Positions 191 to 47,070 of a stretch of DNA of 64,000 bases are shown one piece after another. A program made the position numbers and the translations under genes. Source of the DNA: a virus. The notes beneath the pieces are model-generated. The model saw nothing but the letters and a program-made list of their open reading frames with translations, did not search any database and was not told where the DNA came from. The stretch lies in the IMG/VR virus record IMGVR_UViG_3300025093_000020; one strand, written 5' to 3'. Within the stretch, counting starts at the first letter, position 1. Every line of letters starts with the position of its first letter.

Positions 191-251
191 GCGGCGCGGC
201 CGGTGCCAATTTCACTTTTAAGTTGACATTTGCTTGTGACGCGCGGATATC

Positions 252-1866: not shown

Positions 1867-2084
1867 TGGAAAGCGCTTTCCATGTGATGCGCGCGGCGCT
1901 GCTGCGTTGTGCAGAAAATGCATTGTATGCAGAAACTGATCTAGGCGAGCACAAGCCTTGTCCAGACTATGTACAGCATATGCGCGAAACAATTCTCGCC
2001 ATCATGGCGGCACAATCAATCGACCAGCTTGCGGCCGTGCCATGGGTTGCAGGGCAAGCAGCCCTAGGTGCCGAATTGATCTGA
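1866..2084 (+). CDS. hypothetical protein (72 aa)
   Basis: ATG at 1866 is preceded by AGAGGAG. In frame with track ORF 1857..2084. Followed by a terminator hairpin. Confidence 0.45.
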   Translation: MESAFHVMRAALLRCAENALYAETDLGEHKPCPDYVQHMRETILAIMAAQSIDQLAAVPWVAGQAALGAELI

Positions 2085-2108
2085 ACCAACTGACAACGCG
2101 ATTGACGC

Positions 2109-2138
2109 AACCCGCCCTAGTGGCGGGTTTTGTCGTTT
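2109..2138 (+). terminator. Rho-independent terminator candidate
   Basis: AACCCGCC-ctagt-GGCGGGTT stem-loop followed by TTTGTCGTTT, 25 nt after the stop at 2084. Confidence 0.65.
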
Positions 2139-2172
2139 CTAGGGCTGCCCTGCTGGTGCCGCCCTCGGCGAG

Positions 2173-2252
2173 CTGCTGACCTGCTGCCCTGCTGACCTGC
2201 TGCCCTGCTGCCCTGCTGCCCTGCTGCCCTGCTGACCTGCTGCCCTGGTGCA
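2173..2252. repeat. 8-bp tandem array, about 10 units (CTGCTGCC / CTGCTGAC)
   Basis: Read directly. Units run at 2173, 2181, 2189 and so on to 2245. The period is not a multiple of 3, so it is very unlikely to be coding. Confidence 0.9.
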
Positions 2253-2434
2253 AGCCTCATGTCGTGTTCGGTCTAATCAATCCCGCCTCATGAGACGCGG
2301 TCGATTGTGGCGCGTTGGGTTGTGGTCACACGCTGGCTTTGGGTCCTTCTTGGGCGGGGTGACGGTGGGGCGGGGACGCAGAACCCCGAAAGATGCGCTG
2401 ATTCAAATTTTGCACAGTGAAACAGGCCTAATGT

Positions 2435-3044
2435 CGTTCGATTTCAACGATTTACGCTGTGTTTCCGCGCCGCCGAGACGAATGCAACGTTATATCATAA
2501 CATATCGCGTCAAATGTGAAATTTCGGCTGTTTTCAGGTGCTGCCTGATATTTAGGCGGTTCTTGCTGACCCGGGCTCTTGCTTCGGTTTTGCCTAACTC
2601 AAGGCCGATCAGGCTTAGGTTACAGGGGTTCGATTTAAATCCACTCGCGGCAGCGAAACAGCCCTAGTTCGATTTAAATCCACTCAGATGGCCTGACCAC
2701 CTTGGATTTTAGGGTGGTCAGGCTAGGGTGGTCAGAATTTCCAAGTAAAACCATACTGTTACCACCTTGACCACCTTGACCACCCTAATTGTTAAGGACT
2801 CTGTAGAGAGGGGGAATGGGTGAAGGGGTAATTTCACTCGCAATGTGCCAAATGACCCCGCTGTGGGTCCATCTAGAGTCGGGTGGTCAGGGTGGTAAAG
2901 GTGGTCAAGGGTGGTCAAAAAGGGTGGTCGTTCGATTGTAGCTCACTGAGGCGTTCGATTTAAATCGCGTTGGATTATAAACGAACGAGGGCGCCGAAGC
3001 GCCCAGGTTGGATTTAAATCGCGTTGGATTTTAATCGTTCGATT
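2435..3044. other. Putative origin of replication (iterons plus AT-palindromes)
   Basis: At least 11 copies of GGTGGTCA/TGACCACC: 2694-2701, 2713-2720, 2727-2734, three copies in 2760-2784, and five copies in 2882-2930. They form opposed clusters flanking a unique core. Six copies of GTTCGATT start at 2435, 2628, 2667, 2930, 2953 and 3037. Four copies of the AT-only palindrome ATTTAAAT lie at 2633, 2672, 2958 and 3012. The region sits immediately downstream of the primase-helicase gene and contains no credible CDS. Confidence 0.55.
2989..3004 (-). terminator. Terminator candidate for the primase operon
   Basis: GGGCGC-cgaa-GCGCCC hairpin 27 nt past the primase stop. On the minus strand it is followed by TCGTTCGTTTAT. 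Confidence 0.45.
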
Positions 3045-5577
3045 GTGGTCGAACGTAGACCCGAGTTGCCCCGTAGCGCTTGTTGACCTCGTAGGTTCGG
3101 ACCTTGTTTTCGGTCCTCTTCCAGCCGAGAATCTGCATGGCGCGGCCGATCTTCATCGCCTCAATATTGGGCATCTGACCCGGGCGCCCACCCATGACTT
3201 CTTCCCAGATCTGGGCGGTGCATGTTTCGTTCCGCACGACGCGAGTGCTCTCTTCCAGGTCTTCGAAGTCGTCGCCGACATGGCTGTCGAGCCAGACCTC
3301 GATCTTGCCTGCCAGCACGTCTTCCGGCGTCTCCACGCGCCGGCTTTCCTGGATGCTGGCAGCCTCGATCTGCGCGGCCTCGTCGGTCAGGTGCAGCGGC
3401 AGGTCGCCGTTGTGGCGGCGGCGCATCTCCCGGTAAAGGTGGAGGGCTTCCGCCCAGACCTGCAGCACCTCACCGGCCAGCCGCCGGTTGTCGATCTGCC
3501 CTTCCAGGTTGCACTTGATCGGCCAGAAGCGGCGGTTGCCGGTCTGGTCGCGCAGGTACTCGTCATCGTTGGTGGAGCCGAAGAAGATGCACTGCCGCGG
3601 GAACACCTGAACGCGCTTGGCATAGGCCAGACGCCCCTTGTCGTGGGTCCGGGTGACGAACGCCTTGAGGTCGTTGACCTCGGAGCGGTGCATGGTGCTC
3701 AGTTCCCCGAGTTCGAGGATCCACGAGCCCTGCATCACCTCGATCATCTGCTTGGTGTCTTTGATGTCGCCGGTCAGCTCGTCATACCAGTGGAGGGCCA
3801 GCACCTTGATGAAGGTCGACTTCCCCTTACCCTGCACGCCTTCGAGGATCGGCACGAAGTCGAACTTGTGCCCGGGCTCCATGATGCGGGTGACGGCGCC
3901 GACGAGCGTCAGCAGCGAGGCCTGGCGATGGTAGGGGGTATCCTCGCAGCCCAGGTATTCGATAAACAGCCGCTCGCAGCGCGGAATGCCGTCCCACGGC
4001 TGAGCCATGATGGTATCGCGCACCGGGTGGAATGAATGGGTCTGCGCGGCCGAGTCCACCGCGGCTTTCAAATCTCGATCGCTGATCTTGATACCATAGC
4101 CGCCAGCGGTCATCGGAGCTTCAAACATGATCCGCACGGCAATGTCATGACTGTCTGACCAGGCGTCACCATTGGTCGGGTCACCCAATTCCCAGAGGCG
4201 TCCCGTGAGATTGACCACCTCTTTCGCGTTCGAGTGCTCTTTCTTCTTCGCGCGGCCGGGGCGGCGCTTCAGCACCACCATCTGCGTGAATTCGTTGAAC
4301 GCTGCCGTTCCGTAGGTGCGCAGATCGTTCTTGAAGATGGTGGAGATGTTGTAGGATTGACTTTTAAGCTCACCTTCTTCGTTTCTTGCAAGCAAAACGT
4401 GAAAGTCTGAATTGCGTTGGATCGTCGGTTCAGAGCTGATGACCGGCAGCGTGATATTGGGCGTGTCCTCGGCTGTGATTGCTGCTGCGATCGCGTTCGA
4501 AGTCGGGCCGAGCAAATCATCGAAGGATACTTGTTTCACCGCTGCCGCGGTTGCGCCGAGGATGTCGTTCAGATTGTCGAAGCCGTCATAGTCATCCGCT
4601 TCAAGGGCGATTTCCTCTTTCAAGCGATGATCGAGGGCCGCGCGCCGCACAGTGAGAATGGTGATAGGATTGATGGAGTCTGCGCGGATGGACTTCCAGA
4701 TATAAGCTGCGTTCTCTTCGTCGTATTTCTTGGACTGCTCTGCCCATTCACACCAGATCGTGAAACCCTGATCGCTGCCACGGTATTGGTGATGCAGGGC
4801 CTGACCAACCGTCAGCCAAAGCGCGCGATCTTCGACCCATTCTTCTGGGAGATCATCGAGAAACGTAACGATCTCGTCATCATCGAAATCCTTTGGTTCC
4901 AGCGCGAGAATGGTTTCGAGGTCTTCTGGATCCAGTGCGCCGCGGCCTTCCTTTATCCTAACGCCATTCTCAATCAGCGCTTCCGCTGAGACGGTCATCA
5001 GGTAAGGCATGCTCAGTTCTAGCGGGCGCTCCCAAACATACGGTTCTCCGGTATCCGGGTGGATCGATGGCGGAAGGACGATATTCTTTCCGGTTCCACC
5101 GATGTCGATTTCCCAGTAACTCTTCTTCACCTCACGATTGAGCTTCGCGTCAAAAACCATGTCGAAGCCCGCAGAACGCGCGAGCTTTCGGCTTCCAAAG
5201 GGCTTCTCGCTCAGGAAATAAAGATGGCGGCTTTCGCCGCCTGATCCGCTGATGACGGAGGGTAGGGTTCTGGCGGTTGGTGCGATCTGCAGCAGCGTTT
5301 CCCAGGCCTCGTCCGCGAATTCAGTCCTGCGAATGTCGAGATCGATGACGTGGAGATAGAGGTTGCCGACCTTGGACCAGACACCAGGTCGAAAGCCTAT
5401 GTTGTATCCGGGGCGGTATTTGGAGAGCAGGAGCGCTTCATCATAGCGCTCGACCGTGCTCCAGTTCTTCTCGACTGGTCGTTTATTGCGGGTATTGAGC
5501 CAATGCAGCGATACACTCGCCCGCAAGAGCGGACGAACAGAATCCAGCACGCTTTGCAGCGATGGTGTCTCGGTCAT
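3031..5577 (-). CDS. Bifunctional primase-polymerase / VirE-D5-type helicase (848 aa)
   Basis: N-terminal AEP/Prim-Pol signatures: LHVIDLD, GGESRHLYF, PPSIHP. Central PriCT-like segment: WLTVGQALHH...WCEWA. C-terminal P-loop GVQGKGKST with ILELGE. Confidence 0.85.
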   Translation of the reverse strand: MTETPSLQSVLDSVRPLLRASVSLHWLNTRNKRPVEKNWSTVERYDEALLLSKYRPGYNIGFRPGVWSKVGNLYLHVIDLDIRRTEFADEAWETLLQIAPTARTLPSVISGSGGESRHLYFLSEKPFGSRKLARSAGFDMVFDAKLNREVKKSYWEIDIGGTGKNIVLPPSIHPDTGEPYVWERPLELSMPYLMTVSAEALIENGVRIKEGRGALDPEDLETILALEPKDFDDDEIVTFLDDLPEEWVEDRALWLTVGQALHHQYRGSDQGFTIWCEWAEQSKKYDEENAAYIWKSIRADSINPITILTVRRAALDHRLKEEIALEADDYDGFDNLNDILGATAAAVKQVSFDDLLGPTSNAIAAAITAEDTPNITLPVISSEPTIQRNSDFHVLLARNEEGELKSQSYNISTIFKNDLRTYGTAAFNEFTQMVVLKRRPGRAKKKEHSNAKEVVNLTGRLWELGDPTNGDAWSDSHDIAVRIMFEAPMTAGGYGIKISDRDLKAAVDSAAQTHSFHPVRDTIMAQPWDGIPRCERLFIEYLGCEDTPYHRQASLLTLVGAVTRIMEPGHKFDFVPILEGVQGKGKSTFIKVLALHWYDELTGDIKDTKQMIEVMQGSWILELGELSTMHRSEVNDLKAFVTRTHDKGRLAYAKRVQVFPRQCIFFGSTNDDEYLRDQTGNRRFWPIKCNLEGQIDNRRLAGEVLQVWAEALHLYREMRRRHNGDLPLHLTDEAAQIEAASIQESRRVETPEDVLAGKIEVWLDSHVGDDFEDLEESTRVVRNETCTAQIWEEVMGGRPGQMPNIEAMKIGRAMQILGWKRTENKVRTYEVNKRYGATRVYVRPQSND

Positions 5578-5592
5578 GATGCTGCTCCGGAA

Positions 5593-5955
5593 TCAGAGCG
5601 AGACGGTGTGCGGCAGCAGGTCTTCGCGGGTAAGTTTTCCGCAAGTCACGGCCTTTCCTTCGACTTTGACTTTTTTCGATAGATCCAGCAGCTTGTTCGC
5701 AGTTTTCACGGACATCCGCGCTTCAGGGTCCATCCATCGGTAGATGGTGTAGTGATGGACGCCCAGTTCGGCGGCAAGCACGCGGACCTGCACTTTGTCA
5801 CCGTCAACGAATCGCGGCGGCAGTTTCTTGGCCAGCGTCTTGTAGAGCGTTGTTTCATAGATGTTTTTCTCCGCGTTTTTCTTACGCGGTCGGCCCGTTC
5901 GGGTGGTTTTCGCGAGCGTGTTCATAGGCGTGTCCCGGAGCAGTTCAGGGTTCAT
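5593..5955 (-). CDS. HTH DNA-binding protein (120 aa), candidate early regulator
   Basis: The helix-turn-helix-like segment VRVLAAELGVHHYTIYRWM. It is the first gene of the leftward primase operon and is adjacent to the divergent operator region. Confidence 0.6.
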   Translation of the reverse strand: MNPELLRDTPMNTLAKTTRTGRPRKKNAEKNIYETTLYKTLAKKLPPRFVDGDKVQVRVLAAELGVHHYTIYRWMDPEARMSVKTANKLLDLSKKVKVEGKAVTCGKLTREDLLPHTVSL

Positions 5956-5990
5956 CGGTACTACGCGGCGGCGGAAGAATCAATTTGAAT

Positions 5991-6034
5991 GTGACACTCA
6001 CGTTCAAGGTTGCGGTGTCACGTTTAGTGTGATT
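5991..6034. promoter_or_regulatory. Divergent control region with operator-like dyads
   Basis: GTGACAC (5991-5997) and GTGTCAC (6015-6021) form an inverted repeat. A TCACGT half-site lies at 5998-6003. A full site TCACGT-TTA-GTGTGA lies at 6018-6032. The region sits between the divergent starts at 5955 (-) and 6081 (+). Confidence 0.55.
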
Positions 6035-6080
6035 ATCTCAAGGACGTTGTCAGAATCAAACAGCCGTATGGGAGACACCA

Positions 6081-6560
6081 ATGGCGCTCGAAGACGAAAT
6101 CAAATCCCTCAAGGAAACCGTGGCGCAACTGGTCGATGTGACCAAGGAACTGCTGGCCGTGCGCACCGAGGCAGTCGAAACCGTTCGCACCGCTGCCGCG
6201 CCGAAGGCCACTGGCGCCAAAGCGACGGCGACGGCGGCTGCGGAGACCAAGCCCGCGGCATCCAGCGCCGACGCCAGTACGATCAGTGTCGAGGTTGGCG
6301 AGAAGATGTCGGCAGCCATCGCCGGTTACATCGCCGGCGCGACCCGTGACGAAGAGCGCGCCGCGCGCAAAGACAAGATCAAGGCGCTGCTCCGTCACGA
6401 TCAGATCGTGCGTCCGGAATTCAAGGCCGTCACCGAGACCTATGACGCACTGCAGGTCAAGCCCGAGGCAGTTCAGCTCTTCTTCGATCAGATCGGGTTG
6501 CTGGTGCAACAGGGTGATCTGACCCAGCCCGCGGCTGCCAGCACGGCGCTGAATTTCTGA
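6081..6560 (+). CDS. hypothetical protein (159 aa), coiled-coil N-terminus and Ala/Thr-rich linker
   Basis: ORF track. First gene of the rightward operon. Confidence 0.55.
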   Translation: MALEDEIKSLKETVAQLVDVTKELLAVRTEAVETVRTAAAPKATGAKATATAAAETKPAASSADASTISVEVGEKMSAAIAGYIAGATRDEERAARKDKIKALLRHDQIVRPEFKAVTETYDALQVKPEAVQLFFDQIGLLVQQGDLTQPAAASTALNF

Positions 6561-6901
6561 TGGCGAGCCCCAAGACCATCCGCGAACGGCTGCGCGTCGA
6601 AAAGATCGCAGCCGAGGTGCAGGCGGAATGCGAGGCCCGCTATGCCAAGACGCATCCTTCCCTGCCGCGCACTTCCCGGCGGCACATCGCCGGGACAAAG
6701 GGTCTGCCGTTCAGCCGTTGCAAGCTGATCGACACCACCCCCGCGCAGCCGGGTAAACCGGCTGTCTTTCACCTGAAGCACCCGACACGCGGCACTGGCG
6801 GCGTGTTCACCAAGACCGCGACTCCGCAATTGCTGCGGACCTTCTTTCCATCGCTGCCGGATAACCTGGCCGCCTTCATGCTGGGACGCACACATGGGTA
6901 A
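6560..6901 (+). CDS. hypothetical protein (113 aa)
   Basis: ATG overlaps the upstream stop as TGATG. From the ORF track. Confidence 0.45.
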   Translation: MASPKTIRERLRVEKIAAEVQAECEARYAKTHPSLPRTSRRHIAGTKGLPFSRCKLIDTTPAQPGKPAVFHLKHPTRGTGGVFTKTATPQLLRTFFPSLPDNLAAFMLGRTHG

Positions 6902-7121
6902 CATCCTCCCCGCCGACGCCATCGGATTCGACGCCAAGGTTCGCATCAAGATCTCCGGCGAAACCGGGACCGTGGTCGCGATGAGCGTGGATAAGCGTCT
7001 CACCGAGGGCCAGTACCTGCTGGAATACAAGACCGCCGATGGCCGCGCTTCCGAGAAGTGGTTCTTCGAAAGTCAGATCGAGGTTGTCGGAGCCGAACTT
7101 CCCCCGCCCAGCGACGACTGA
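6894..7121 (+). CDS. hypothetical protein (75 aa)
   Basis: ORF track. Overlaps the upstream gene end by 8 nt. Confidence 0.45.
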   Translation: MGNILPADAIGFDAKVRIKISGETGTVVAMSVDKRLTEGQYLLEYKTADGRASEKWFFESQIEVVGAELPPPSDD

Positions 7122-7128
7122 CGGATTT

Positions 7129-7159
7129 CCCCGCGCTTCCCAGCGCGGGGTTCTCCCTT
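7129..7159 (+). terminator. Rho-independent terminator or attenuator candidate
   Basis: CCCCGCGC-ttccca-GCGCGGGG followed by TTCTCCCTT. Confidence 0.55.
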
Positions 7160-7215
7160 GAGCCGTCCGTTGGACGGTTGAAGCGAGAAATTCGCAGCAG
7201 AAGGAGACCCATGCG

Positions 7216-7695
7216 ATGACCGACTCGAAAGACCCGAGACCGCTGTCCAAGACGACAGCCAAGCCGGAAGCGGCTGCAGCACCGAAACCGGAGGTGGCAA
7301 AGCCCGCTGCTGAGCCCAAGGCCGCGCCCGAGAAGCCCGCTGCTCAACCCAAGGAGGCGCAGGGCACCCTTGATCTGGGTTTCAGCCTGGAAGGTCTGAA
7401 CATCCAGCAGCTCGCGCAGCTTCAGGCTGACGCGGCAGTTCGTTTTGCAGAGGCCAAAAAGGCAGCGCTGGTCGATGCGCGGCGGGCCGTCGAGAAACTG
7501 GCGTCCGACTGGGGGTTCAGCATGCTCGAACTGGGCTTCCAGCCGGTCAAGTCGAAGTCCAAGGCGCCGATCGGGGCACCGAAGTACCGGAACCCCGCCG
7601 ATCCCGCTCAGACCTGGACCGGCACCGGGCGCAAGCCGCAGTGGATCCTCGACGCGCTGGAGAAGGGCGTCGACATCGAGACCATGAAGATCTGA
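7216..7695 (+). CDS. H-NS family nucleoid-associated protein (159 aa)
   Basis: The C-terminal motif YRNPADPAQTWTGTGRKPQWI matches the H-NS DNA-binding signature (TWxGxGRxPxW). Upstream of it are a coiled-coil and a Pro/Ala/Lys-rich N-terminus. RBS AAGGAG at 7201. Confidence 0.75.
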   Translation: MTDSKDPRPLSKTTAKPEAAAAPKPEVAKPAAEPKAAPEKPAAQPKEAQGTLDLGFSLEGLNIQQLAQLQADAAVRFAEAKKAALVDARRAVEKLASDWGFSMLELGFQPVKSKSKAPIGAPKYRNPADPAQTWTGTGRKPQWILDALEKGVDIETMKI

Positions 7696-7865
7696 TGGCC
7701 GTTCAGGTTGTGCTGCCGGATGAACGGTTGGCAACCTGCTCCTGCGGGGTGCAAGTCAGATTCCGCCCCGCAGACATCGACCTCTTTCACAACACCACTG
7801 CCGGGGTGAAAGAGGTCGATGAGTTCGTAACGTGCCCCTGTTGCGGAAAGAAGATCTTCGTCTGA
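7695..7865 (+). CDS. small zinc-ribbon protein (56 aa)
   Basis: Cys pairs CSCG...CPCCG. ATGA overlap with the H-NS-like gene stop. Confidence 0.5.
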   Translation: MAVQVVLPDERLATCSCGVQVRFRPADIDLFHNTTAGVKEVDEFVTCPCCGKKIFV

Positions 7866-9223
7866 TGGCACACGCAACGAAAACTCCCCCTTCATCTGCC
7901 GACCGTTGGTTCTATTGCACGGCCTCAGTCCTTCTGATCCTGCAATTGATGCGTAATGGCGAATTAAAGGAGAGCGATCTTGAACGCGACGAGGGTGTCA
8001 CCGAGGATGAGGTGCTTGAATTCGGCGGTTATGATGACGTTGTATTGGGCAATTCTATCTCAGACTCTTTCTCCGCCGAAGGGACTGTGCTTCATGAAGT
8101 TCGGGCCAGTTGTCTAGAATTCAACCTTGATCCCATGAACTTTGTCGGATTGGAAATGAGTGCTGATGGGCATTCGTTTCTGATTGATGACGATAAGGCC
8201 GATCGATTGGTTGCAGGCATAGATTGGATCCGGGAGCACACACGCGCGCCATACGTGGAAACCCGGGTTGATCTATCCGAATGGCTGCCGGAACAGTTCG
8301 GCACCTGCGATACTTTCTGGCTGAAACCTGTTCGCGGCAAGCGTGATATTTTCGATCTGTACGTCTCCGATTATAAGAACGGCATCGGTAGACCTGTCGA
8401 TGCCGAAGGGAACAAACAGCTTCGGATCTACGCGCTTGGCGCCTGGGTTTTCCTCGGAAAGCCGAATATCCGAAAGATCATCATCAACATCGATCAGCCG
8501 CGCGTCGGCGGCATGAAGTATGACGAGTTTGATTTCCAAGAATTGCTTGAGTTCGGCGAAGAATTGAAGCGAATTTGGGAACGCATCGAAAGCGGAAACG
8601 TTGAATTCGTGCCTACCATCAAAGGTTGTCAGTTCTGCCCGGTGAGGAAGACTGACGCAGGCTGCGCCGCCTATAACCGATGGCTGTTGCTGATGTGCGG
8701 GACCGCCTTCCTTGATCCGTCAGAACCCTATCCCAAATTCAAAGACCCTGAGCAGATCACCGCCGCGCAGAGGTACTATATCGTGCGGCACGCGGCAGCG
8801 TTGAAGTCCTGGCTGGAGAAGCTGTATGAGGCCTCTCTGCGCGCTGCTATGGCGGGTAACCCCGACCCTGGGTCCAAGGCGATCGAGGGTAACGGTGGCA
8901 AGCGCTACTTCACCAATGAAGAGCGCGCACAGCGCATCATGAAACACGCTCTTGGGGATCAGGCATTCAAGCCCCGCGAGTTGATCGGTTTCACGGAGCT
9001 TGACCGGCTGATGAAGCCCGGTCGCAAGAAGGATGGATTTCCGCGGCACTATGCGCTGCTGGAAAAGCTGGCAGCTCGGCCAAAGGGGAAGCCCAAATTG
9101 GTGTCAGCGGATCACCCGAAACCTGCACTGGAAACGGTGTCTACGGATGATTTCGAGGATCTACCGGAAAAAGGATCAGTGCGCCGCGTCGAGATTTCGA
9201 CCGACGATTTCGCAGACCTTTGA
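7865..9223 (+). CDS. PD-(D/E)XK Cas4/RecB-like nuclease (DUF2800-like, 452 aa)
   Basis: The N-terminal Cys (WFYCTAS) plus the C-terminal CQFCPVRKTDAGC cluster is typical of Cas4-type Fe-S nucleases. A DYK motif is present. It has the canonical position upstream of the SSB-like and polymerase genes. TGATG coupling at the start. Confidence 0.65.
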   Translation: MAHATKTPPSSADRWFYCTASVLLILQLMRNGELKESDLERDEGVTEDEVLEFGGYDDVVLGNSISDSFSAEGTVLHEVRASCLEFNLDPMNFVGLEMSADGHSFLIDDDKADRLVAGIDWIREHTRAPYVETRVDLSEWLPEQFGTCDTFWLKPVRGKRDIFDLYVSDYKNGIGRPVDAEGNKQLRIYALGAWVFLGKPNIRKIIINIDQPRVGGMKYDEFDFQELLEFGEELKRIWERIESGNVEFVPTIKGCQFCPVRKTDAGCAAYNRWLLLMCGTAFLDPSEPYPKFKDPEQITAAQRYYIVRHAAALKSWLEKLYEASLRAAMAGNPDPGSKAIEGNGGKRYFTNEERAQRIMKHALGDQAFKPRELIGFTELDRLMKPGRKKDGFPRHYALLEKLAARPKGKPKLVSADHPKPALETVSTDDFEDLPEKGSVRRVEISTDDFADL

Positions 9224-9247
9224 AAAACAGAAAACTAGGAGAGAAAA

Positions 9248-9928
9248 ATGGGAAAACTGATGGAACGCGACAACACGGGTCGCACGACAATGCTCACCCG
9301 GGTGCGCGCGTCTTTCGCGGAATCGTTGCAGGAGAAAAAGGCGTCGAAGGCCGATCCGACGAAACTGTCTCACGCGGCGAACTTCATCATCGAACGGGAT
9401 AGCCCTGATTTCGAGAGCAACAAGGCAGCGGTTGTCGCCGCGCTCCAGAATACCTGCAAGGAAGCCAAGCGGTCGGAAAACTGGTGGAAACAGCTTTTTG
9501 ACGACGATCCCAAGCAGCTTGCCTTCCGCAAAGGGGAACGCTTCAAGGACAAGAACGGCGAGATCTACAAGGGTTATGAGAACAATCTGATTGTCGTCGG
9601 GAAAGGGCCGAAAGCCGGCGCCGAGCGGCCGAGCAAACTGCTTGATCGCTACAAGCGTCCCATCGAAGTGAATGACATCAATGATGTGATTTACAACGGC
9701 ACCATGTGCGACGTGGTGATCTCCTGGTACTATACCGACAAACACGGCCCCGCGCGCATTACCTGCTCGATTGAGGCCGTGCGGTCGTGGCAGGAGGGGG
9801 AACGCCTCGGCGGCGGCGGTATCTACGTCGATGAGGACGATTTCGATACCATTGAAGGCGACGACGATGGGTTCGACTCGCCTCCCAAAACCCAGACCTC
9901 CAGCAGCACCAGCCTCCTGGATTTCTGA
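9248..9928 (+). CDS. phage ssDNA-binding protein candidate (DUF2815-like, 226 aa)
   Basis: Synteny (nuclease, this gene, polymerase) and an acidic aromatic tail DEDDFDTIEGDDDGFD...SLLDF. RBS AGGAGAG. Confidence 0.5.
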   Translation: MGKLMERDNTGRTTMLTRVRASFAESLQEKKASKADPTKLSHAANFIIERDSPDFESNKAAVVAALQNTCKEAKRSENWWKQLFDDDPKQLAFRKGERFKDKNGEIYKGYENNLIVVGKGPKAGAERPSKLLDRYKRPIEVNDINDVIYNGTMCDVVISWYYTDKHGPARITCSIEAVRSWQEGERLGGGGIYVDEDDFDTIEGDDDGFDSPPKTQTSSSTSLLDF

Positions 9929-9933
9929 TAGAG

Positions 9934-9972
9934 CTGGCGGCTTCGGCCGCCAGTTTCACCTTTTGCGGGAGA
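9934..9972 (+). terminator. Hairpin plus conserved 19-nt leader TTTCACCTTTTGCGGGAGA
   Basis: CTGGCGGC-ttcg-GCCGCCAG at 9934-9953, followed by a 19-mer identical to 32205-32223. The 19-mer supplies the GGGAGA RBS of the next gene. Confidence 0.5.
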
Positions 9973-9980
9973 AGCACGTC

Positions 9981-10148
9981 ATGTTCCGTTTCCTTTTGAT
10001 GATTTTCGGTCGGAAAAGAGTTTTCGAGAGGTTGTCTAGCAATACCAATCTCCCCTGCGAGGCGATCCAGTATAGCGATTCAATGGTCTGCGCTCGCTGC
10101 GGTTTGATCTGGGATATGAACGATCCTGATGCGCCTTGGTGTAAATGA
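9981..10148 (+). CDS. small Cys-rich protein (55 aa)
   Basis: ATG 9 nt after GGGAGA. Carries C...CARCG...C. Its end overlaps the polymerase start. Confidence 0.45.
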   Translation: MFRFLLMIFGRKRVFERLSSNTNLPCEAIQYSDSMVCARCGLIWDMNDPDAPWCK

Positions 10149-12181
10149 CTTCCGACATTTTCTTCGATATCGAATGCTTTCCGAATTTCTTCTTCGTCGG
10201 CATGAAGCGCCGCGAAGACGGAAAGAGGATTGGTTTCGAACTCAGCGAACGCCGAAATACTTTTGATCGTGATCGGATTCGGCGCCTTCTTTTGAAGACG
10301 CGCCACATTGGCTACCATTCCTTGACTTACGACTTACCAATGCTTTGGTATGCGCTTGACGAAAACGTGACCAACGCAATTCTCAAGGAAAAATCCAACG
10401 GGATCATTCAGGGGAATTTACGTTGGTGGGATGTTGACGATTACCTAGGTATCCGCGTCCCTTGGGATGTGCGAAATCGTCATATCGATCTCATCGAGCC
10501 TCAACCGAACGCCTTTGCGTCATTGAAGGCTCTGAATGGGCGGATGCACGGGGAACACCTGCAAGACCTACCTTACCAGCATGACACTGTGCTCACGGAC
10601 GCACAGATGGATGTTGTGGCGGAATACTGCCTTCATCGCGATCTCGATGCCACCGAAAACCTCTGGAATACCTTGGCTGAACCTATGGCGCTCCGCGAAG
10701 CGCTTGGCGCGCAGCATGGGCAGAATTTCATGTCCAAGTCGGACTCGCAGATTGGTGAAGCAATCGTCAAAAAGCGCGTCGAGGAAATTACCGGAACGAA
10801 GCCACAGCGCATCGAAACGAAACCTGGAACTACGTTCTTTTACCCAGTTCCGGAATGGATGAAGTTTGAGACGCCAGCTTTACAAAGCTTTCTTGAGGAA
10901 GTGCGCCAGGCTCAGTTTGTAATTGGCGCCGATGGAAAGGTTAAATCTCCAAAGGCGCTGAAAGACGTTCGAGTCAAACTCGGGAACATGGAATATAGCG
11001 TCGGTATTGGTGGACTCCATTCGACGGAAGCCCATCGGCCGGTGAAATCTGACCAAGACTGGCAACTTGTTGATGCTGATGTGGCGTCTCAGTATCCCTC
11101 GATTATCCTTATGCTTGGGCTTTTCCCAAAATCTCTAGGTGCTCCATTCCTTGAAGCCTATCGAGCGATTCGCGACGAACGGCTCAAAGCCAAGAAGCGC
11201 GTCAAGGAAATTAAGAAGGAACTGCCCGGCGTAAACGATCCAGACAGAATTGCGGAACTCAAGCGGGAGCTTGAGATTTGCACTGTCAAGGATAAGGGCG
11301 GTAAGATCCAGTTGAACGGTGTATATGGAAAGCTCGGCAGTAAGTACAGCATTCTCTACGCACCCCATCTGCTGATCGGTGTGACTTTGACAGGGCAATT
11401 AACCTTGCTCATGCTCATTGAGAAAGCATTGGCCGCAGGTATCGACGTGGTTTCCGGAAACACTGACGGCGTTCTTTTCCGTTGCCCGCGTGCAAAATAC
11501 GCCGGCTTGGACGGAGATCGTTTGATACCTTCCGCCTTGAAGAATGTGTGCGACTGGTGGGAAAATTTGACGGGCTTTGATCTCGAATTTGGGGAATATG
11601 ACGCCGTTTACAGTTCGTCGGTGAACACCTATTATGCGATTAAGCCAAATGGCGGGCATAAGCGCAAAGGGCCAATCGGTAATCCGTGGTCATCGCATCC
11701 TGACGATTTCGATCCGGTCCGTGGCCAGCTCACGAAAAACCCGCAGATGACGATATGTTCTGACGCAGCGCTTGCCAAGATTAAACACGGAACACCAGTT
11801 GAGGAAACGATCTACAATTGCCGAGACATGAAGCAGTTTATCACGGTGATTGCAGCGAGTTCAGGCGCCACTTGGCGCGAGGAATACCTTGGCCGAGTGG
11901 TTCGGTATTATTGGTGTAAAAACGGTGAGGCCGTATTGCGGGCCGAGGCAAACGACAGCGGCACTTTTGCCCGCGTGCAGAAGACAGAAGGCGCAGGCGC
12001 GTGTATGAAATTGCCGAACGAGATGCCAGACGACATCGACTATCAGCGTTACATTGATGAAGCTGAATCCATTCTTCGCGACGTTGGCTTCTATGGCGCC
12101 ATCATACCCAAGAGAAAGCCAATCCGCCTCACCAAAAAGAACAAGGTTCCCGTGTTATCAACGTGGATGCAGGTGGCGTGA
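10145..12181 (+). CDS. DNA polymerase with 3'-5' exonuclease, family-B-type motifs (678 aa)
   Basis: Exo I FFDIECFPN. Exo II-like SLTYDLPML. Pol motif A DADVASQYPSII (DxxSxYPS). Motif B KIQLNGVYGKLG (KxxxNxxYG). Motif C GNTDGV (xxTDx). Confidence 0.8.
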   Translation: MTSDIFFDIECFPNFFFVGMKRREDGKRIGFELSERRNTFDRDRIRRLLLKTRHIGYHSLTYDLPMLWYALDENVTNAILKEKSNGIIQGNLRWWDVDDYLGIRVPWDVRNRHIDLIEPQPNAFASLKALNGRMHGEHLQDLPYQHDTVLTDAQMDVVAEYCLHRDLDATENLWNTLAEPMALREALGAQHGQNFMSKSDSQIGEAIVKKRVEEITGTKPQRIETKPGTTFFYPVPEWMKFETPALQSFLEEVRQAQFVIGADGKVKSPKALKDVRVKLGNMEYSVGIGGLHSTEAHRPVKSDQDWQLVDADVASQYPSIILMLGLFPKSLGAPFLEAYRAIRDERLKAKKRVKEIKKELPGVNDPDRIAELKRELEICTVKDKGGKIQLNGVYGKLGSKYSILYAPHLLIGVTLTGQLTLLMLIEKALAAGIDVVSGNTDGVLFRCPRAKYAGLDGDRLIPSALKNVCDWWENLTGFDLEFGEYDAVYSSSVNTYYAIKPNGGHKRKGPIGNPWSSHPDDFDPVRGQLTKNPQMTICSDAALAKIKHGTPVEETIYNCRDMKQFITVIAASSGATWREEYLGRVVRYYWCKNGEAVLRAEANDSGTFARVQKTEGAGACMKLPNEMPDDIDYQRYIDEAESILRDVGFYGAIIPKRKPIRLTKKNKVPVLSTWMQVA

Positions 12182-12525
12182 TGAAAGTCCCTACGGATTT
12201 CGATTTTGGGCAGAGGGAACTGGAGGCGAACGAAGAGCTTGAGGCCGTGGCTTGGGCCGAGAACAACGGCTGGATCTCCAGGAAGCTCAGCTTTGAGGGG
12301 CGCCGCGGTGCGCCGGATCGGATGTTCGCGGGTCACGGCGAGCTTTTCATATGCGAATTCAAGAAGCTGTCGCGCCTGAACACCAAGCGCGGCGGCAAGT
12401 CGGGCGGCCAATCCAAGGAGGCGTTGAGGTTCGAGGCCGTGGGCGTACATGTGCCCACCTTCTACACAGCATCTAGTTGCATTGACTACCTGAAGCACAA
12501 GATGTCAAAGTCACTTTTAGTGTGA
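12181..12525 (+). CDS. VRR-NUC domain nuclease (114 aa)
   Basis: The PDRMF...ELFICEFKK (D...ExK) signature. ATGA overlap with the polymerase stop. Confidence 0.65.
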   Translation: MKVPTDFDFGQRELEANEELEAVAWAENNGWISRKLSFEGRRGAPDRMFAGHGELFICEFKKLSRLNTKRGGKSGGQSKEALRFEAVGVHVPTFYTASSCIDYLKHKMSKSLLV

Positions 12526-12527
12526 GA
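12509..12527. promoter_or_regulatory. Operator-like dyad AGTCAC-N7-GTGAGA
   Basis: Core TCACTT-TTA-GTGTGA, 20 nt upstream of the nrdJ ATG. Confidence 0.4.
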
Positions 12528-12545
12528 ATCACGAGGAACAGGACC

Positions 12546-14813
12546 ATGGGAACACATTTCAGCGCGCCGATCGCAGAGCAGATCTGGGACGCCAAATATC
12601 GCTTCAAACAGTTCGACGGCACCCCGATCGATCAGGATGTCGAAGACAGTTGGCGGCGCATCGCCAAGCACCTGGCTTCGGCCGAGAAGGATCCGGAGCT
12701 GTGGGAGCCGAAGTTCTATGAAGCGCTGGAGGATTTCAAGTTCCTGCCGGCCGGGCGCATCACCGCAGGCGCTGGCACCGATCGCAGCGTGACGCTGTTC
12801 AACTGCTTCGTCATGGGCAGCATCCCCGACAGCATGGACGGCATCTTCAGCATGCTGAAAGAGGCCGCGCTGACGATGCAGCAGGGCGGGGGGATCGGTT
12901 ACGACTTCAGCACCATCCGCCCATCGGGCGCCGAGGTTAAAGGCGTGGCTGCTGACGCCTCTGGTCCCCTGACCTTCATGGATGTCTGGGACGCCATGTG
13001 CCGCACTGTCATGTCCGCTGGTAGCCGCCGCGGGGCGATGATGGCGACGATGCGCTGCGACCATCCCGACATCCTGAAATTCATCGAAGCCAAGCGCGAT
13101 CCGAAACGCCTGCGGATGTTCAACATGTCCGTGCTGGTGACGGACGACTTCATGGCCGCGGTGAAGGCTGACGGGCTCTGGGAACTGCATTTCCAGAAGA
13201 AGATCTACAAGACCATGGCGGCGCGCGAGCTGTGGAACCACATCATGCAGGCGACCTATGACGTGGCCGAGCCGGGCGTCATCTTCATTGATCGCATCAA
13301 CAAGATGAACAATCTCGGGTATTGCGAGACCATCGCAGCAACCAACCCCTGTGGCGAACAACCCCTGCCGCCCTATGGCGCCTGCTTGCTGGGCTCGATC
13401 AACCTCGCTCGCCTGATCGAAAATCCGTTCGGCAATGACTCTGGAATCGACCGGAGGAAGCTGTCCAAACTCGTCCGTACCGCCGTCCGAATGATGGATA
13501 ACGTGATCGAGGTTTCCAATTTCCCGCTTCAGCAGCAACGGCAGGAGGCGCTGGATAAGCGCCGTATCGGCCTTGGCGTTACCGGGCTTGCTGATGCGCT
13601 GATCATGTGCGGCCTGATTTACGGCTCCGACGAGGCGTGCCGTCAGACTGAGGAATGGCTCCGCTGCATTGCCATCGAGGCCTATCTCGCCTCCGCTGAT
13701 CTGGCCGCCGAGAAAGGTTCTTTTCCGCTACTGGACAGGGAGAAATTCCTTGCCTCCGGCAACATGCAGCAGATGCCGAAAATAGTGCATGATGCTGTCA
13801 GAAGCTTCGGCATCCGAAATGCGCTGCTGACCTCGATCGCACCCACCGGCACGATTTCCCTTTACGCTGGCAACGTGTCGTCGGGAATTGAGCCCGTCTT
13901 CGCGCACGAGTACACGCGCAAGGTTCTGCAGAAAGACGGCTCCAAGGTCGAGGAAGTCGTGCAGGACTTCGCCGTCAAGGCATACTGGGATTGGTTCGGT
14001 GAAGGCGGCTCCCAGCACCCTGGTGATCTCCCCGCGACTTTCGTGACGGCGCAGGATCTGCCGCCGGAGGCGCATATCCGAATGCAGGCAGCCGCGCAGA
14101 AATGGATCGACAGTTCGATTTCCAAGACCATCAACCTGCCAGCCGACATCAGCTTCGATGATTTCCAGCAGGTCTACATGGACGCCTATGACAGCGGGTG
14201 CAAGGGCTGCACGACCTACCGGCCCAACGATGTCACGGGATCGGTGCTGTCTGTGGCCCCGAAACCGGAGGCCGAGGCGGCACCTGAACCCGCGAAAGAG
14301 GTACAAGCTGTCGAGCAGCCTGCCGACCGGCCGGAACACCTGAACGGCACGACCTACAAGCTGAAATGGCCGAACGATCCGCACGCGATCTATGTGACCG
14401 TCAATGACAAGGACGGGCGACCGTTCGAGGTGTTCTTCAATACCAAGAATACCGGACATCAGGCGTGGATGATGGCGCTTTCTCGTACCATCAGCGCGGT
14501 ATTTCGGCGCGGAGGCGATAGCCGGTTCATCGCACAAGAGCTGATGGAGGTGTTCGATCCGAAAGGAGGCGCTTGGGTCAATGGCACCTATGTGCCCTCT
14601 CTCATCGCCGCCATCGGCCAGCTTCTGTCGCGCCATATGGACGGTGGTCTATGCGGGGCAGTGCGAGCCGGCGAGATCAGCTTGAACGACGCACTGGGGG
14701 TGGGGGGCTCATCGATTTCGGCCGCGGCTTGCACCTCTTGCGGGGCGCTCGCCTTGGTGATGTCAGGAGGTTGCAGCACATGCAGCTCCTGCGGCTATAG
14801 CAAGTGCGGTTGA
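12546..14813 (+). CDS. nrdJ: Class II (adenosylcobalamin-dependent) ribonucleotide reductase
   Basis: Active-site block NPCGEQPLPPYGACLLGSINL. C-terminal redox Cys tail CTSCG...CSTCSSCGYSKCG. RBS GAGGAA precedes the ATG at 12546. Confidence 0.9.
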   Translation: MGTHFSAPIAEQIWDAKYRFKQFDGTPIDQDVEDSWRRIAKHLASAEKDPELWEPKFYEALEDFKFLPAGRITAGAGTDRSVTLFNCFVMGSIPDSMDGIFSMLKEAALTMQQGGGIGYDFSTIRPSGAEVKGVAADASGPLTFMDVWDAMCRTVMSAGSRRGAMMATMRCDHPDILKFIEAKRDPKRLRMFNMSVLVTDDFMAAVKADGLWELHFQKKIYKTMAARELWNHIMQATYDVAEPGVIFIDRINKMNNLGYCETIAATNPCGEQPLPPYGACLLGSINLARLIENPFGNDSGIDRRKLSKLVRTAVRMMDNVIEVSNFPLQQQRQEALDKRRIGLGVTGLADALIMCGLIYGSDEACRQTEEWLRCIAIEAYLASADLAAEKGSFPLLDREKFLASGNMQQMPKIVHDAVRSFGIRNALLTSIAPTGTISLYAGNVSSGIEPVFAHEYTRKVLQKDGSKVEEVVQDFAVKAYWDWFGEGGSQHPGDLPATFVTAQDLPPEAHIRMQAAAQKWIDSSISKTINLPADISFDDFQQVYMDAYDSGCKGCTTYRPNDVTGSVLSVAPKPEAEAAPEPAKEVQAVEQPADRPEHLNGTTYKLKWPNDPHAIYVTVNDKDGRPFEVFFNTKNTGHQAWMMALSRTISAVFRRGGDSRFIAQELMEVFDPKGGAWVNGTYVPSLIAAIGQLLSRHMDGGLCGAVRAGEISLNDALGVGGSSISAAACTSCGALALVMSGGCSTCSSCGYSKCG

Positions 14814-15238: not shown

Positions 15239-16641
15239 TGCGATCTCCAGAGGAACTTAGGCGCGGCCAAAAGCTGATCAGCAAACTCGTCTATGAGAAT
15301 TATGCGCATCTGATCATCTCTGGCATGGGGAGCGGCAAGACCGGGGCGACACTCGACGCCACGGTCAAGCTGCTTAACCGCCTTGAGGTGAATCACGTTC
15401 TTGTCGTGGCTCCCAAATTCGTCGCCAAATCCACCTGGCCTGACGAAGTAAAAACATGGGAGCATACGCGCGCAATCAGTGTTGCCGTTGCAGTTGGTGA
15501 TCCAATTGTTCGGAGAGCCGCGATTAAAAGACGCGCAGAAATCACGACGATCAATACTGAAAATCTCCCTTGGCTCGCCAAGTTCATCAAGACGGTGGAT
15601 AATTGGTATTGGGACATGGTGATTATTGACGAGTCTTCTCGTTTCAAGAGTGGTGAAGGTCGGACGCTACCCACCAAATACAAGGATTCAAAAGGTGAGG
15701 TGAAAGTCCGCAAAGGTGGAAACATGACGCGGTTTGGCATCATGACCACGGCCCGGCGGAAAATGAACCGCGTCATTGAGCTGACTGGCACGCCGGCGCC
15801 CAAGGGCCTGATTGATCTCTGGGGGCAGGCGTACCTGCTCGATCAGGGCGAGGCGCTTGGGCGTGACAAGAGCGGCTTCGAGCGCAAGTGGTTCGACAAG
15901 GACGCGCGCACGCACATCATCAAGCCTAGGGCAAACGCTGAGGCGGAGATCCTAGGGCGCCTCGGGCATCTGCTGACGACGATCCCGCCGGAGGTGGTGG
16001 TCCCTGAGCCTCAGTTCATTCAGATGAACGTCGACCTGCCGCCTGCGGTGCTGAAGAACTACCTGGACTTCGAGCGCGACCTCTACAGCGAGCCCTATGA
16101 CGTGGAGGCGGTGTCCAAGGGGGTGCTCGCCAACAAGCTGCTGCAGGCGGCCAACGGCGCGCTCTACCGCGAAGATCGTGAGGTCGTGCACATCCATGAC
16201 GAGAAGTTGGAGGCACTGGCCGAGCTGGATGAGATGTGCGCTGATGAAAGCCTGCTCATTTTCTATGCGTTCAAGTTCGACAAGGAGCGGATTAAAGCTC
16301 GTTTCCCTGATGCCGTTGTCGCGAATGAATACCGTGGCGATCTCGTGGCAGATTGGAACAAAGGTAGAATTAAACGATTGCTCGCGCACCCCGCTTCGAT
16401 CGGTCACGGCACCAACATGCAGTATGGCGGGCACATTGCCTGTTGGTATGGCCTAACTTTTTCCTTGGAACTATGGATGCAGGCAAACATGCGTCTCCCT
16501 CGGCCGGGGCAAACGAAACAGGTTCTAATCTATCCGATTGTCGCCCGCAGAACCTACGATGAGCGCGCGTTGGCAATCTTGCAGGACCGAGAAACCACAC
16601 AAACGAAAATCATAGAACATTTTCTGGCATACAAATCTTGA
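15238..16641 (+). CDS. SNF2/DEAD-like phage helicase (467 aa)
   Basis: Walker A GMGSGKTG. DExx box VIIDESSRF. C-terminal helicase block LLAHPASIGHGTNMQ. This gene is the typical partner of VRR-NUC in phage replication modules. Confidence 0.75.
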   Translation: MRSPEELRRGQKLISKLVYENYAHLIISGMGSGKTGATLDATVKLLNRLEVNHVLVVAPKFVAKSTWPDEVKTWEHTRAISVAVAVGDPIVRRAAIKRRAEITTINTENLPWLAKFIKTVDNWYWDMVIIDESSRFKSGEGRTLPTKYKDSKGEVKVRKGGNMTRFGIMTTARRKMNRVIELTGTPAPKGLIDLWGQAYLLDQGEALGRDKSGFERKWFDKDARTHIIKPRANAEAEILGRLGHLLTTIPPEVVVPEPQFIQMNVDLPPAVLKNYLDFERDLYSEPYDVEAVSKGVLANKLLQAANGALYREDREVVHIHDEKLEALAELDEMCADESLLIFYAFKFDKERIKARFPDAVVANEYRGDLVADWNKGRIKRLLAHPASIGHGTNMQYGGHIACWYGLTFSLELWMQANMRLPRPGQTKQVLIYPIVARRTYDERALAILQDRETTQTKIIEHFLAYKS

Positions 16642-16713
16642 GTTTCACAGTTTGATTGACATATTCGTTCGGTAGAAAGGGAGCATCTTCCTTACATTTT
16701 TGCAGGACTGATA

Positions 16714-23768: not shown

Positions 23769-23815
23769 AATCACGTCTAGTGTGTTTTCTGTTGAGTGTC
23801 ACGCGAAACGTGATA
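23769..23815. promoter_or_regulatory. Two operator-like dyads upstream of alpA
   Basis: TCACGT-CTA-GTGTGT at 23771-23785 and TCACGC-GAA-ACGTGA at 23799-23813, which ends 35 nt before the ATG at 23848. Confidence 0.5.
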
Positions 23816-26978: not shown

Positions 26979-27053
26979 TTTCACATAAAAAGTGAAATAC
27001 AAGAACAACTTGCAAGTTTAACGTGACTCGGGGTATGGCTAGGGCAACGTGAC
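26979..27053. promoter_or_regulatory. Operator cluster in the terL-gpW intergenic region
   Basis: Palindrome TTTCAC-ATAAAAA-GTGAAA at 26979-26997. Two direct AACGTGAC half-sites at 27020-27027 and 27046-27053, 26 bp apart. Confidence 0.5.
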
Positions 27054-32183: not shown

Positions 32184-32223
32184 GGGTGATCCGGTGGGTC
32201 ACCCTTTCACCTTTTGCGGGAGA
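32184..32223 (+). terminator. Hairpin plus conserved 19-nt leader TTTCACCTTTTGCGGGAGA
   Basis: GGGTGA-N9-TCACCC at 32184-32204, then a 19-mer identical to 9954-9972. It follows the major capsid gene. Confidence 0.4.
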
Positions 32224-32231
32224 TAACCCAA

Positions 32232-36719: not shown

Positions 36720-36738
36720 TTTCACGTTATAAGTGAGA
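36720..36738. promoter_or_regulatory. Operator-like dyad TTTCAC-N7-GTGAGA
   Basis: Core TCACGT-TAT-AAGTGA, 23 nt upstream of the major tail gene ATG. Confidence 0.45.
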
Positions 36739-47044: not shown

Positions 47045-47070
47045 AAGCACTTTAGACGGGAGTTTCACCT

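Follow-up and report, generated by a model that had tools for sequence, protein, structure and literature searches.

A dispersed, two-fold symmetric 15-bp motif as the candidate operator of a lysogeny-module regulator in a temperate Casjensviridae-like marine phage

The stretch of viral DNA considered here (IMG/VR record IMGVR_UViG_3300025093_000020; 64,000 nucleotides, hereafter the window) carries a short palindrome of the type TCACGT-N3-ACGTGA that recurs at gene boundaries, as a first-pass annotation had proposed, and all of the strong sites in that annotation were recovered in place. There are about 13 copies in the window, and such sites are common to every examined relative that encodes a particular 219-amino-acid regulator. 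The motif is probably an operator bound by a dimeric helix-turn-helix (HTH) regulator of the phage lysogeny module, most likely the CI-like 219-amino-acid protein encoded at 16714-17373, with repression as the outcome, a reading that we consider somewhat better than an even bet and in which both the identity of the binding protein and the repressive effect are predicted from sequence.

The window represents the bulk of a temperate siphophage genome of approximately 71 kb from marine metagenomes, and its sequence was matched in marine metagenome DNA runs alone. A gene map built from codon usage contains 82 genes and is about 92% coding. The large terminase subunit (TerL) shares 69% identity with its counterparts in the RcD cluster of Rhodobacter capsulatus phages. 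These are Casjensviridae whose temperate lifestyle has been shown by experiment (PMC8601537). Forty of the 82 window proteins match proteins of phage RcGingersnap, at about 30-70% identity and with gene order maintained, so that by both synteny and protein similarity the phage belongs with the Casjensviridae-like temperate siphophages. The right end of the window falls inside the early region; the corresponding ENA contig adds 1.9 kb, and this extension reveals a divergent region of about 900 bp.

An exhaustive pattern search found eight exact matches to TCAC-N7-GTGA in the window, compared with 1.09 ± 0.93 in dinucleotide shuffles, none of 100 of which reached eight; the earlier estimate of roughly one chance match, with at least seven present, is thereby borne out. 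The same pattern tops the intergenic list in an unbiased count of all palindromes with four-base arms and spacers of 0-12 nt. The looser, family-level pattern TCAM-N7-KTGA has 15 matches where 4.18 are expected (0 of 100 shuffles reach 15), about ten at gene boundaries and about five, with GC spacers and within coding sequence, at chance level. Seven of the eight exact matches have an A/T-rich spacer and a start codon 20-72 nt downstream. The claim that every copy lies at a boundary, 20-50 nt before a start codon, thus stands for these seven as regards location, with a wider range of distances, and fails for the eighth at 50227, which is deep within a gene, has a GC-rich spacer, was absent from the earlier list, and is the roughly one match expected by chance. 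A position weight matrix (PWM) derived from window and RcGingersnap sites describes the full site as a symmetric 15-bp palindrome, TCACRTY-N-RAYGTGA, and in both genomes high scores are overwhelmingly intergenic. Two weaker copies proposed previously are doubtful, that at 2834 having a PWM score of 10.5 and lying in an origin-like repeat core, and that at 17377 being only a half-site; better copies missing from the earlier list were found at 212-226, 5980-5994, 16645-16659, and 27012-27026, together with a weak one at 47047-47061. The sites of the window are as follows.

212-226: hybrid site TCACTTTTAAGTTGA; its right half overlaps the consensus -35 TTGACA (223-228) of the promoter-like TTGACA-N17-GATATC.
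254-268: site TCACAGTAAACGTGA, directly 3' of the -10-like GATATC (246-251), with the ATG at 294 lying 25 nt further on.
5980-5994: site TCAATTTGAATGTGA, in the divergent region between a leftward small HTH/primase operon and a rightward early operon.
5998-6003: lone half-site TCACGT, flanked on either side by a full site (5980-5994 and 6018-6032).
6018-6032: site TCACGTTTAGTGTGA, filling the spacer of the rightward TTGCGG (6010-6015)-N18-TATCTC (6034-6039) and abutting the -10 of the leftward TTGATT-N16-GATAAT (6059 to 6032).
12511-12525: site TCACTTTTAGTGTGA, in the last 15 nt of an endonuclease gene, 20 nt before the nrdJ ATG.
16645-16659: site TCACAGTTTGATTGA, upstream of the regulator gene, for which it is the putative autoregulatory operator; it takes up the 16-nt spacer between TTGAGT (16638-16643) and CATATT (16660-16665).
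23771-23785: site TCACGTCTAGTGTGT, with one mismatch (GTGT); the farther of two sites that precede the AlpA/excisionase gene.
23799-23813: site TCACGCGAAACGTGA, 34 nt before the alpA ATG, lying between the hexamers TTGAGT (23792-23797) and TAGACC, which are 16 nt apart.
26981-26995: site TCACATAAAAAGTGA, 2 nt past the terL stop codon; it and the next site form a pair ahead of the gpW-like head-tail adaptor gene.
27012-27026: site GCAAGTTTAACGTGA, second of this pair, 41 nt before the ATG at 27068.
36722-36736: site TCACGTTATAAGTGA, 24 nt before the ATG of the major tail protein gene.
47047-47061: weak site GCACTTTAGACGGGA, before the gene at 47071.
58218-58232: best site, TCACGTTAGACGTGA (TCACGT-TAG-ACGTGA), 22 nt upstream of minus-strand gapR and overlapping the -10 (TAACGT) of the minus-strand TTGACC (58243-58248)-N17 promoter.

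Gene labels in the first-pass annotation on which this catalogue leans proved correct, namely AlpA (PF05930) at 23848, the major tail protein at 36761, and GapR at 57932. Beyond the right end of the window, the divergent region in the ENA extension contains two further strong sites, TCACGTTTGATGTGA and TCAAGTTAGATGTGA, and two hybrid sites. In the hybrid sites at 212 and at window-equivalent positions 64289 and 64865 the right half-site TTGA doubles as the beginning of a -35 TTGAC; since the right half of the operator is also the -35 hexamer, repressor binding would be in competition with recognition by the sigma factor. The arrangement TCACTTTT-N3-TTGAC(A/C) occurs three times, at window positions 212-228 and at window-equivalent 64289 and 64865. 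Separately, the stretch at window-equivalent 64240-64670 contains three exact copies of GCAGATTTCTCTGGGG and a terminator-like hairpin, an array that may be bound by a second regulator.

The symmetry of the site was evident over 115 sites, in which position frequencies are mirror-symmetric and the half-sites are about one helical turn apart. The strand giving the better PWM score is unrelated to the direction of transcription, and for this reason the site is regarded as symmetric; an alternative, in which the left half was better kept and the motif oriented with transcription, was not supported by the same strand calls.

Conservation of the sites follows gene junctions and not alignable sequence. 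RcGingersnap has at least 14-19 intergenic copies, with the consensus TCACRTCTGAYGTGA, in intergenic DNA that cannot be aligned to that of the window, and copies recur at the following orthologous junctions (distances to the start codon in brackets).

Primase-side divergent region: window 5980 and 6018; RcGingersnap 3569 and 3633.
nrd junction: window 12511 (20 nt); RcGingersnap 13528 (19 nt).
Regulator gene: window 16645; RcGingersnap 17353.
Excisionase gene: window 23799 (34 nt); RcGingersnap 19823 (34 nt).
gpW-like gene, paired sites: window 26981 and 27012 (72 and 41 nt); RcGingersnap 24116 and 24156 (74 and 34 nt).
Major tail gene: window 36722 (24 nt); RcGingersnap 31291 (22 nt); AchV4 9440 (22 nt); V18 32474.
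Gene after the tail TIM-barrel protein: window 47047 (weak); RcGingersnap 40824 (a perfect site).
gapR: window 58218 (22 nt); RcGingersnap 52403 (24 nt).

Four distant Casjensviridae, namely Rhizobium phage RHph_X2_30, Achromobacter phage AchV4, Klebsiella phage KPN_BP, and Pseudomonas phage SS2019XI, carry variant sites: the unbiased count places TCAA-N7-TTGA / CAAC-N5-GTTG at the top of the intergenic palindromes of each. The resulting sequence, TCAAC-N5-GTTGA (A-type, as distinct from the C-type TCAC sites), has the same 15-bp geometry with one symmetric base changed, and is present in 10-24 intergenic copies in each of the four genomes. These copies are found at matching junctions, including that before the major tail gene (22 nt in AchV4), the terL/gpW-like junction with two copies (at 47576 and 47634 in RHph_X2_30), and those before the regulator gene and alpA. 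TCAM-N7-KTGA is likewise present at these junctions in Ruegeria phage V18 and in three loci of metagenomic or prophage origin (L090, L091, and L093). The intergenic bias of TCAM-N7-KTGA is significant in all seven complete genomes (binomial p from 1e-3 to 7e-13) and, with lineage-specific patterns, p ranges from 1.5e-3 to 5e-18. In a negative control, the motif did not rise above background counts in about 0.9 Mb of contigs from unrelated phages with nrdJ; these contigs came from an nrdJ-based retrieval of loci that returned mostly unrelated phages, and retrieval with the major tail and primase genes yielded few additional relatives. One nrdJ contig (L062, IMGVR_UViG_3300006033_000029, 5841-13961) has five TCAC-N7-GTGA matches in 17 kb where 0.2 are expected, of the form TCACC-N5-(A/T)AGTGA, and may represent another lineage with a variant of the same operator.

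Many of the sites coincide with predicted core promoters. A generic scan for E. coli-type promoters added only the leftward promoter at 6059-6032, and for this reason a custom, more tolerant scoring with controls was used. In this analysis, in which promoters are consensus predictions, a sigma70-like -35/-10 pair overlaps 17 of 32 curated sites, compared with 8-11% of random or intergenic control positions, and with six genomes pooled the overlap is 36% against 13% in controls (Mann-Whitney p = 8e-15). Measured from the start of the -35, sites begin at about 7, 13-18, or 27-31 nt, placing them over the spacer, the -10, or the transcription start. The spacer register (spacers of 16-18 bp) is seen at 6018 (TTGCGG and TATCTC as flanking hexamers), 16645 (TTGAGT and CATATT), and 23799 (TTGAGT and TAGACC) and at RcGingersnap 17353 (TTGACT and TATCTG); the -10 register at 58218 and its ortholog 52403, both within TTGAC(C/G)-N17-TAA(C/T)GT; and the start-site register at 254, immediately 3' of the -10 in TTGACA-N17-GATATC. 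Because the register varies, the motif is unlikely to be a promoter element read by RNA polymerase itself, and because an activator would sit upstream of the -35, it does not resemble a classical activator site; coverage of the spacer, -10, or start site is instead the signature of a repressor operator. Among good -35/-10 pairs of the six pooled genomes the registers form clusters about one helical turn apart, with few sites between them, which may reflect a face-of-helix constraint or a scoring artefact.

Three HTH proteins are common to the window and RcGingersnap, and all three had been named as possible binders of the motif. Of these, the protein that co-occurs with the sites is the following.

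16714-17373, plus strand: candidate cognate repressor, 219 amino acids, with an XRE/CI-like N-terminal HTH, a long helix, and a C-terminal domain with an Hjc-like PD-(D/E)XK fold.

Its RcGingersnap counterpart is gp19. The regulator matches PHROG families annotated as transcriptional regulator or repressor, shows weak similarity to the HTH domain of TP901-1 CI (E = 0.024), and its AchV4 homolog has been called lambda-cI-like by HHpred (PMC7996906). Every genome that carries the motif encodes a homolog, whose gene is invariably located between those for helicase and integrase/excisionase, and the presumptive recognition region E[T/A]VRKWFxGExRPRP is near-invariant across phages with near-identical motifs. 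The gene looks like a transcription unit of its own: in the window as in RcGingersnap its promoter spacer contains an operator, and in the window a terminator-like hairpin follows at 17524-17547. In total 287 homologs were found, many in Celeribacter, Mesorhizobium, and Yoonia prophages. One of them, P0089, is located on an Asticcacaulis chromosome (CP084910; locus L092, 10001-10684), where dnaG and rpoD of the host follow it directly and the surroundings contain no phage genes; it has an 'ES' helix and may be a domesticated copy of the regulator.

An AlphaFold2 model of the regulator, built from 34 sequences (pLDDT 91), predicts a five-helix HTH domain at residues 10-84, followed by a long helix (92-115) and, at 119-204, an alpha/beta domain. 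Foldseek related the N-terminal part to EspR-type regulators and the C-terminal domain to archaeal Hjc Holliday-junction resolvases (E = 1e-4, target-normalised TM of about 0.57), and also to I-Ssp6803I, RecU, and the SPARDA nuclease domain, dimeric PD-(D/E)XK enzymes. No S24 (LexA-like) autocleavage domain was found in the regulator by Pfam, and the model gives the Hjc/PD-(D/E)XK fold in its stead. Residues D127, H149, E184, D186, R196, and K197 are conserved in the C-terminal domain; however, the Asp expected to open the second strand is variable and is not followed by ExK, such that a canonical D...ExK motif is not evident. This modelled domain may be catalytic, or may act as a dimerisation module or a sensor.

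Intergenic sites and the regulator gene co-occur. Genes for the regulator, integrase, and excisionase are missing from three members of the Casjensviridae, Chi, Redjac, and Sano, whose helicase gene runs directly into terS and which retain the small gene beside the primase. Counts of TCAM-N7-KTGA in these and in the regulator-encoding genomes are given below.

Seven regulator-encoding genomes: total 9-29, expected 1.6-3.0, intergenic 4-19.
Chi: total 3, expected 2.7, intergenic 0.
Redjac: total 3, expected 3.6, intergenic 1.
Sano: total 6, expected 1.7, intergenic 0.

All seven genomes with the regulator are enriched and none of the three without it is, and since intergenic counts differ between these groups (Mann-Whitney p = 0.010), the motif can be tied to the lysogeny module. 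Chi, a Salmonella phage (L094 and L095), has intergenic palindromes of its own, ACGC-N5-GCGT and ACGC-N1-GCGT, with five of seven copies intergenic in each case.

Taken together, site symmetry, conservation at orthologous boundaries, overlap with core promoters, and co-occurrence with the 16714-17373 gene favour the suggestion in the first-pass annotation of a DNA operator for a phage HTH protein. In the mechanism that we propose, a dimer of the regulator would sit on the 15-bp palindrome, on or beside sigma70-type core promoters, and would either keep RNA polymerase off the promoter or stop it at the start site. Its targets would be the roughly 13 sites of the window and at least two strong ones past its right end, which together would serve the early, replication, excision, head-tail, tail, and gapR promoters and that of the regulator itself, so that one repressor would silence many scattered promoters in the lysogen while regulating its own synthesis. 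Sites without recognisable hexamers may mark weak promoters or act as roadblocks. A broader proposal, which is possible but clearly more speculative than the operator assignment, is that a global silencing system is common to temperate Casjensviridae-type phages whose hosts are alpha-, beta-, and gamma-proteobacteria. In it a CI-like HTH repressor, with a catalytically degenerate Hjc-like domain for dimerisation or sensing replacing S24, would act at 10-30 symmetric operators, those at late structural promoters included. On this proposal, because an autocleavage domain is lacking, induction would need to follow a route unlike that of LexA, such as an antirepressor or the sensing of DNA structure by the nuclease-fold domain.

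Several observations weigh against the assignment to this repressor. The three genomes without sites lack the whole lysogeny module, making the 219-amino-acid regulator inseparable in this comparison from the AlpA/excisionase-type protein or the integrase. The regulator has neither the S24 peptidase domain nor the gene arrangement, divergent from a lytic promoter, that is seen in lambda, leaving it a candidate for the role of immunity repressor, and the annotators of RcGingersnap apply the term 'immunity repressor' to another small protein, gp79. About half of the sites have no convincing -35/-10 pair, promoter calls being consensus matches, and with the loose pattern in the window alone the overlap with promoters is weak (17% versus 11%). 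In addition, loci L090 and L093, whose regulators have 'EA' and 'EG' helices, carry mostly C-type or hybrid half-sites. A residue-to-base code, pairing an 'ET' helix with TCAC and an 'EA' helix with TCAA, had fitted seven genomes and four loci and then failed at L090 and L093, which served as an independent test.

The alternatives differ in the protein that would read the site, in the sign of its effect, and in whether the site is DNA at all. Positive control is unlikely, though it comes closest: the same regulator, or the 62-amino-acid AlpA-family protein encoded just upstream of terS, would activate middle or late promoters during lytic growth. Sites do precede late genes (gpW-like, major tail, and tail tip), the half that is without a good -35 is reminiscent of activator-dependent promoters, and the AlpA-type gene is placed where late activators often sit and is itself absent from Chi, Redjac, and Sano; moreover, spacer-binding activators and Q/AlpA-type loaders are known (PMC9371919). 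The distance from the -35, however, varies (about 7, 17, and 28 nt), with the site often over the -10 or the start, which is incompatible with class I or II activation or with a fixed loading site, and many sites accompany a near-consensus TTGAC -35 that would be expected to function independently of an activator. MerR-type activation involves promoter spacers of 19-20 bp, whereas those here are 16-18 bp, and a 15-bp two-fold symmetric site suits an HTH dimer better than a winged helix of the Xis/AlpA type. Pseudomonas aeruginosa AlpA is larger, has another architecture, and acts as a monomer that reads a 6-bp asymmetric element at a fixed position, with a sigma-dependent pause (PMC9371919). 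A role for the window AlpA-family protein as a Q-like antiterminator was considered and rejected in view of its length of only 62 amino acids and of the symmetric, 15-bp site in variable register.

Rather improbable, in turn, is an operator with a different binder, be it the primase-side HTH protein (5593-5925), the 91-amino-acid HTH protein at 58223-58498 (RcGingersnap gp62), or a Cro-like early protein encoded outside the window. Cro-type proteins commonly use the operators of the repressor as well, and the two strongest clusters of sites are in divergent regions beside small genes (5926-6080, and beyond 64000). The primase-side protein of AchV4 (AchV4_0071) has also been called cI-like by HHpred (PMC7996906). 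The putative recognition helix of the primase-side protein nevertheless differs widely among phages with an identical motif, tblastn found the protein within the RcD cluster only, and a gene at the same position persists in the siteless Chi, Redjac, and Sano, so that among the binders proposed earlier the 16714-17373 protein gains and the 5593-5925 protein is disfavoured. Pfam searches of the small genes around the divergent region beyond the window found no HTH, and a PDB sequence search with the two small HTH proteins gave nothing informative. Capture of a conserved host transcription factor by the phages is very improbable. It would account for the same A-type sequence in Rhizobium, Achromobacter, Klebsiella, and Pseudomonas phages, but these hosts span alpha-, beta-, and gamma-proteobacteria, the Salmonella, Providencia, and Xylella relatives are siteless exactly where the lysogeny module is missing, and the switch between C and A follows phage lineage; we know of no host regulator with this consensus, although no search aimed at one was made. 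Equally remote is a function in RNA, as a short stem-loop in mRNA leaders for processing, stabilisation, or translational control, which had been raised from the start and to which the location of sites in or near leaders, the spacing of many of them 9-34 nt before start codons, kept at orthologous genes, and the potential of some copies to form a 6-bp stem would lend themselves. Against this, the conserved stem is just 4 bp (TCAC/GTGA), folding of the 15-mers yields 0 to -4.9 kcal/mol, and the motif is strand-symmetric and placed anywhere from about -8 to more than 100 nt from the start codon, while overlap with promoter hexamers leaves part of many copies untranscribed. In 115 sites, complementarity at the inner pairs 5-11, 6-10, and 7-9 does not exceed that of partner-shuffled controls (p = 0.14, 0.97, and 0.59), and no compensatory changes were found, nor were the sites among terminator-like matches; the RNA reading is largely refuted by this absence of covariation.

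Other features of the genome were noted in the course of this work. A Prim-Pol/VapE primase is encoded at 3031-5577, and upstream of it the 1.16-kb non-coding stretch 1867-3030 has an origin-like architecture, comprising about 12 tandem 8-bp units CTGCTGMC at 2144-2250, GGGTGGTCA-type iterons in two inverted clusters (2694-2790 and 2879-2929) around an AT-richer core, and five GTTCGATTTAAATC repeats that make up all matches to GATT-N2-AATC (five of five intergenic). An identical 18-mer, TTTCACCTTTTGCGGGAG, is present at two unrelated junctions, 9953-9973 and 32204-32224, both times 3' of a GC-rich hairpin and about 10 nt upstream of a start codon, and looks like a duplicated module of terminator plus ribosome-binding site. 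The GapR homolog is encoded at 57932-58195 and an acyl carrier protein homolog (PF00550), also encoded by RHph_X2_30, at 63686-63916. GANTC (CcrM-type) sites are depleted across the window, with 154 present and about 238 expected.

The motif is not described in the RcD paper, the AchV4 paper, or the literature reached by full-text searches, and the arrangement appears to be previously undescribed. It would provide a concrete regulatory map, with promoters, a likely controller, and lysogenic silencing, for the widespread but little-studied Casjensviridae and their temperate marine and soil relatives. For annotation, the motif marks promoters and operons and predicts immunity groups with C-type and A-type sites; it also tells temperate from lytic members of the family, which is relevant to the use of Chi-like phages in biocontrol. 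The pairing of an HTH with an Hjc-like fold, in a protein without S24, turns the manner in which these prophages are induced into a question, and with RcD-cluster phages and R. capsulatus lysogens already in culture the system is a tractable one.

Dispersed intergenic repeats and phage operators have several precedents with which the present sites can be compared. The T1-like phages T1 and Stevie have 16-20 mostly intergenic copies of a 22-bp repeat (PMC4319613), and resemble the phage considered here in being proteobacterial siphophages with many copies of a short intergenic repeat. Their repeats differ in being asymmetric and oriented with transcription, and are found in lytic phages with no known binding protein. 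The CI systems of lambda and TP901-1 share with the one predicted here palindromic operators with half-sites about one helical turn apart that are read by an HTH dimer, overlap with core promoters, and an autoregulatory operator. The lambda half-sites also share TCAC/GTGA, with N5 spacing. Lambda, however, has two tripartite operators only, whereas here about 13-15 single or paired sites are dispersed and include late promoters, and the regulator gene is co-oriented behind the helicase gene in a replication-integration block with a single operator in its own promoter; with no tripartite divergent operator and no S24 domain, the arrangement would not constitute a lambda-type switch. In symmetry and dispersal of sites the closest analogue is provided by the conserved inverted repeats (CIRs) of Streptomyces phage phiC31, a 17-bp inverted repeat at many intergenic positions that is bound by the c repressor, with some copies off promoters, although that phage is actinobacterial and its repressor belongs to an unrelated family.

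The closest parallel in genome-wide deployment is found in the Cluster A mycobacteriophages, in which one repressor of the L5 gp71 type acts at more than 20 sites across the genome to keep the prophage silent (PMC9283540). These stoperators lie in promoters and in short gaps between co-directional genes, late ones included, and are 13-bp asymmetric sequences read by a monomer with two DNA-binding domains, such that their orientation must follow transcription (PMC9283540). The present sites resemble them in being numerous, dispersed, and intergenic (about 13-15 in this phage and up to 24 in RHph_X2_30), and differ in being two-fold symmetric 15-mers without orientation bias, with a candidate repressor that combines an XRE-type HTH with a PD-(D/E)XK-like domain and with proteobacterial hosts. 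Foldseek returned Hjc, SPARDA, I-Ssp6803I, and EspR, and no Cluster A repressor was among the 50 matches listed that might have indicated an HTH plus 'stoperator domain' architecture. Because stoperators are asymmetric, orientation-dependent, and read by a monomer, the system described here may best be viewed as their functional analogue and not as a stoperator system in the strict sense. Repressor sites deployed across whole genomes may thus extend beyond the actinobacteriophages, with symmetric sites doing the job that asymmetric stoperators perform there.

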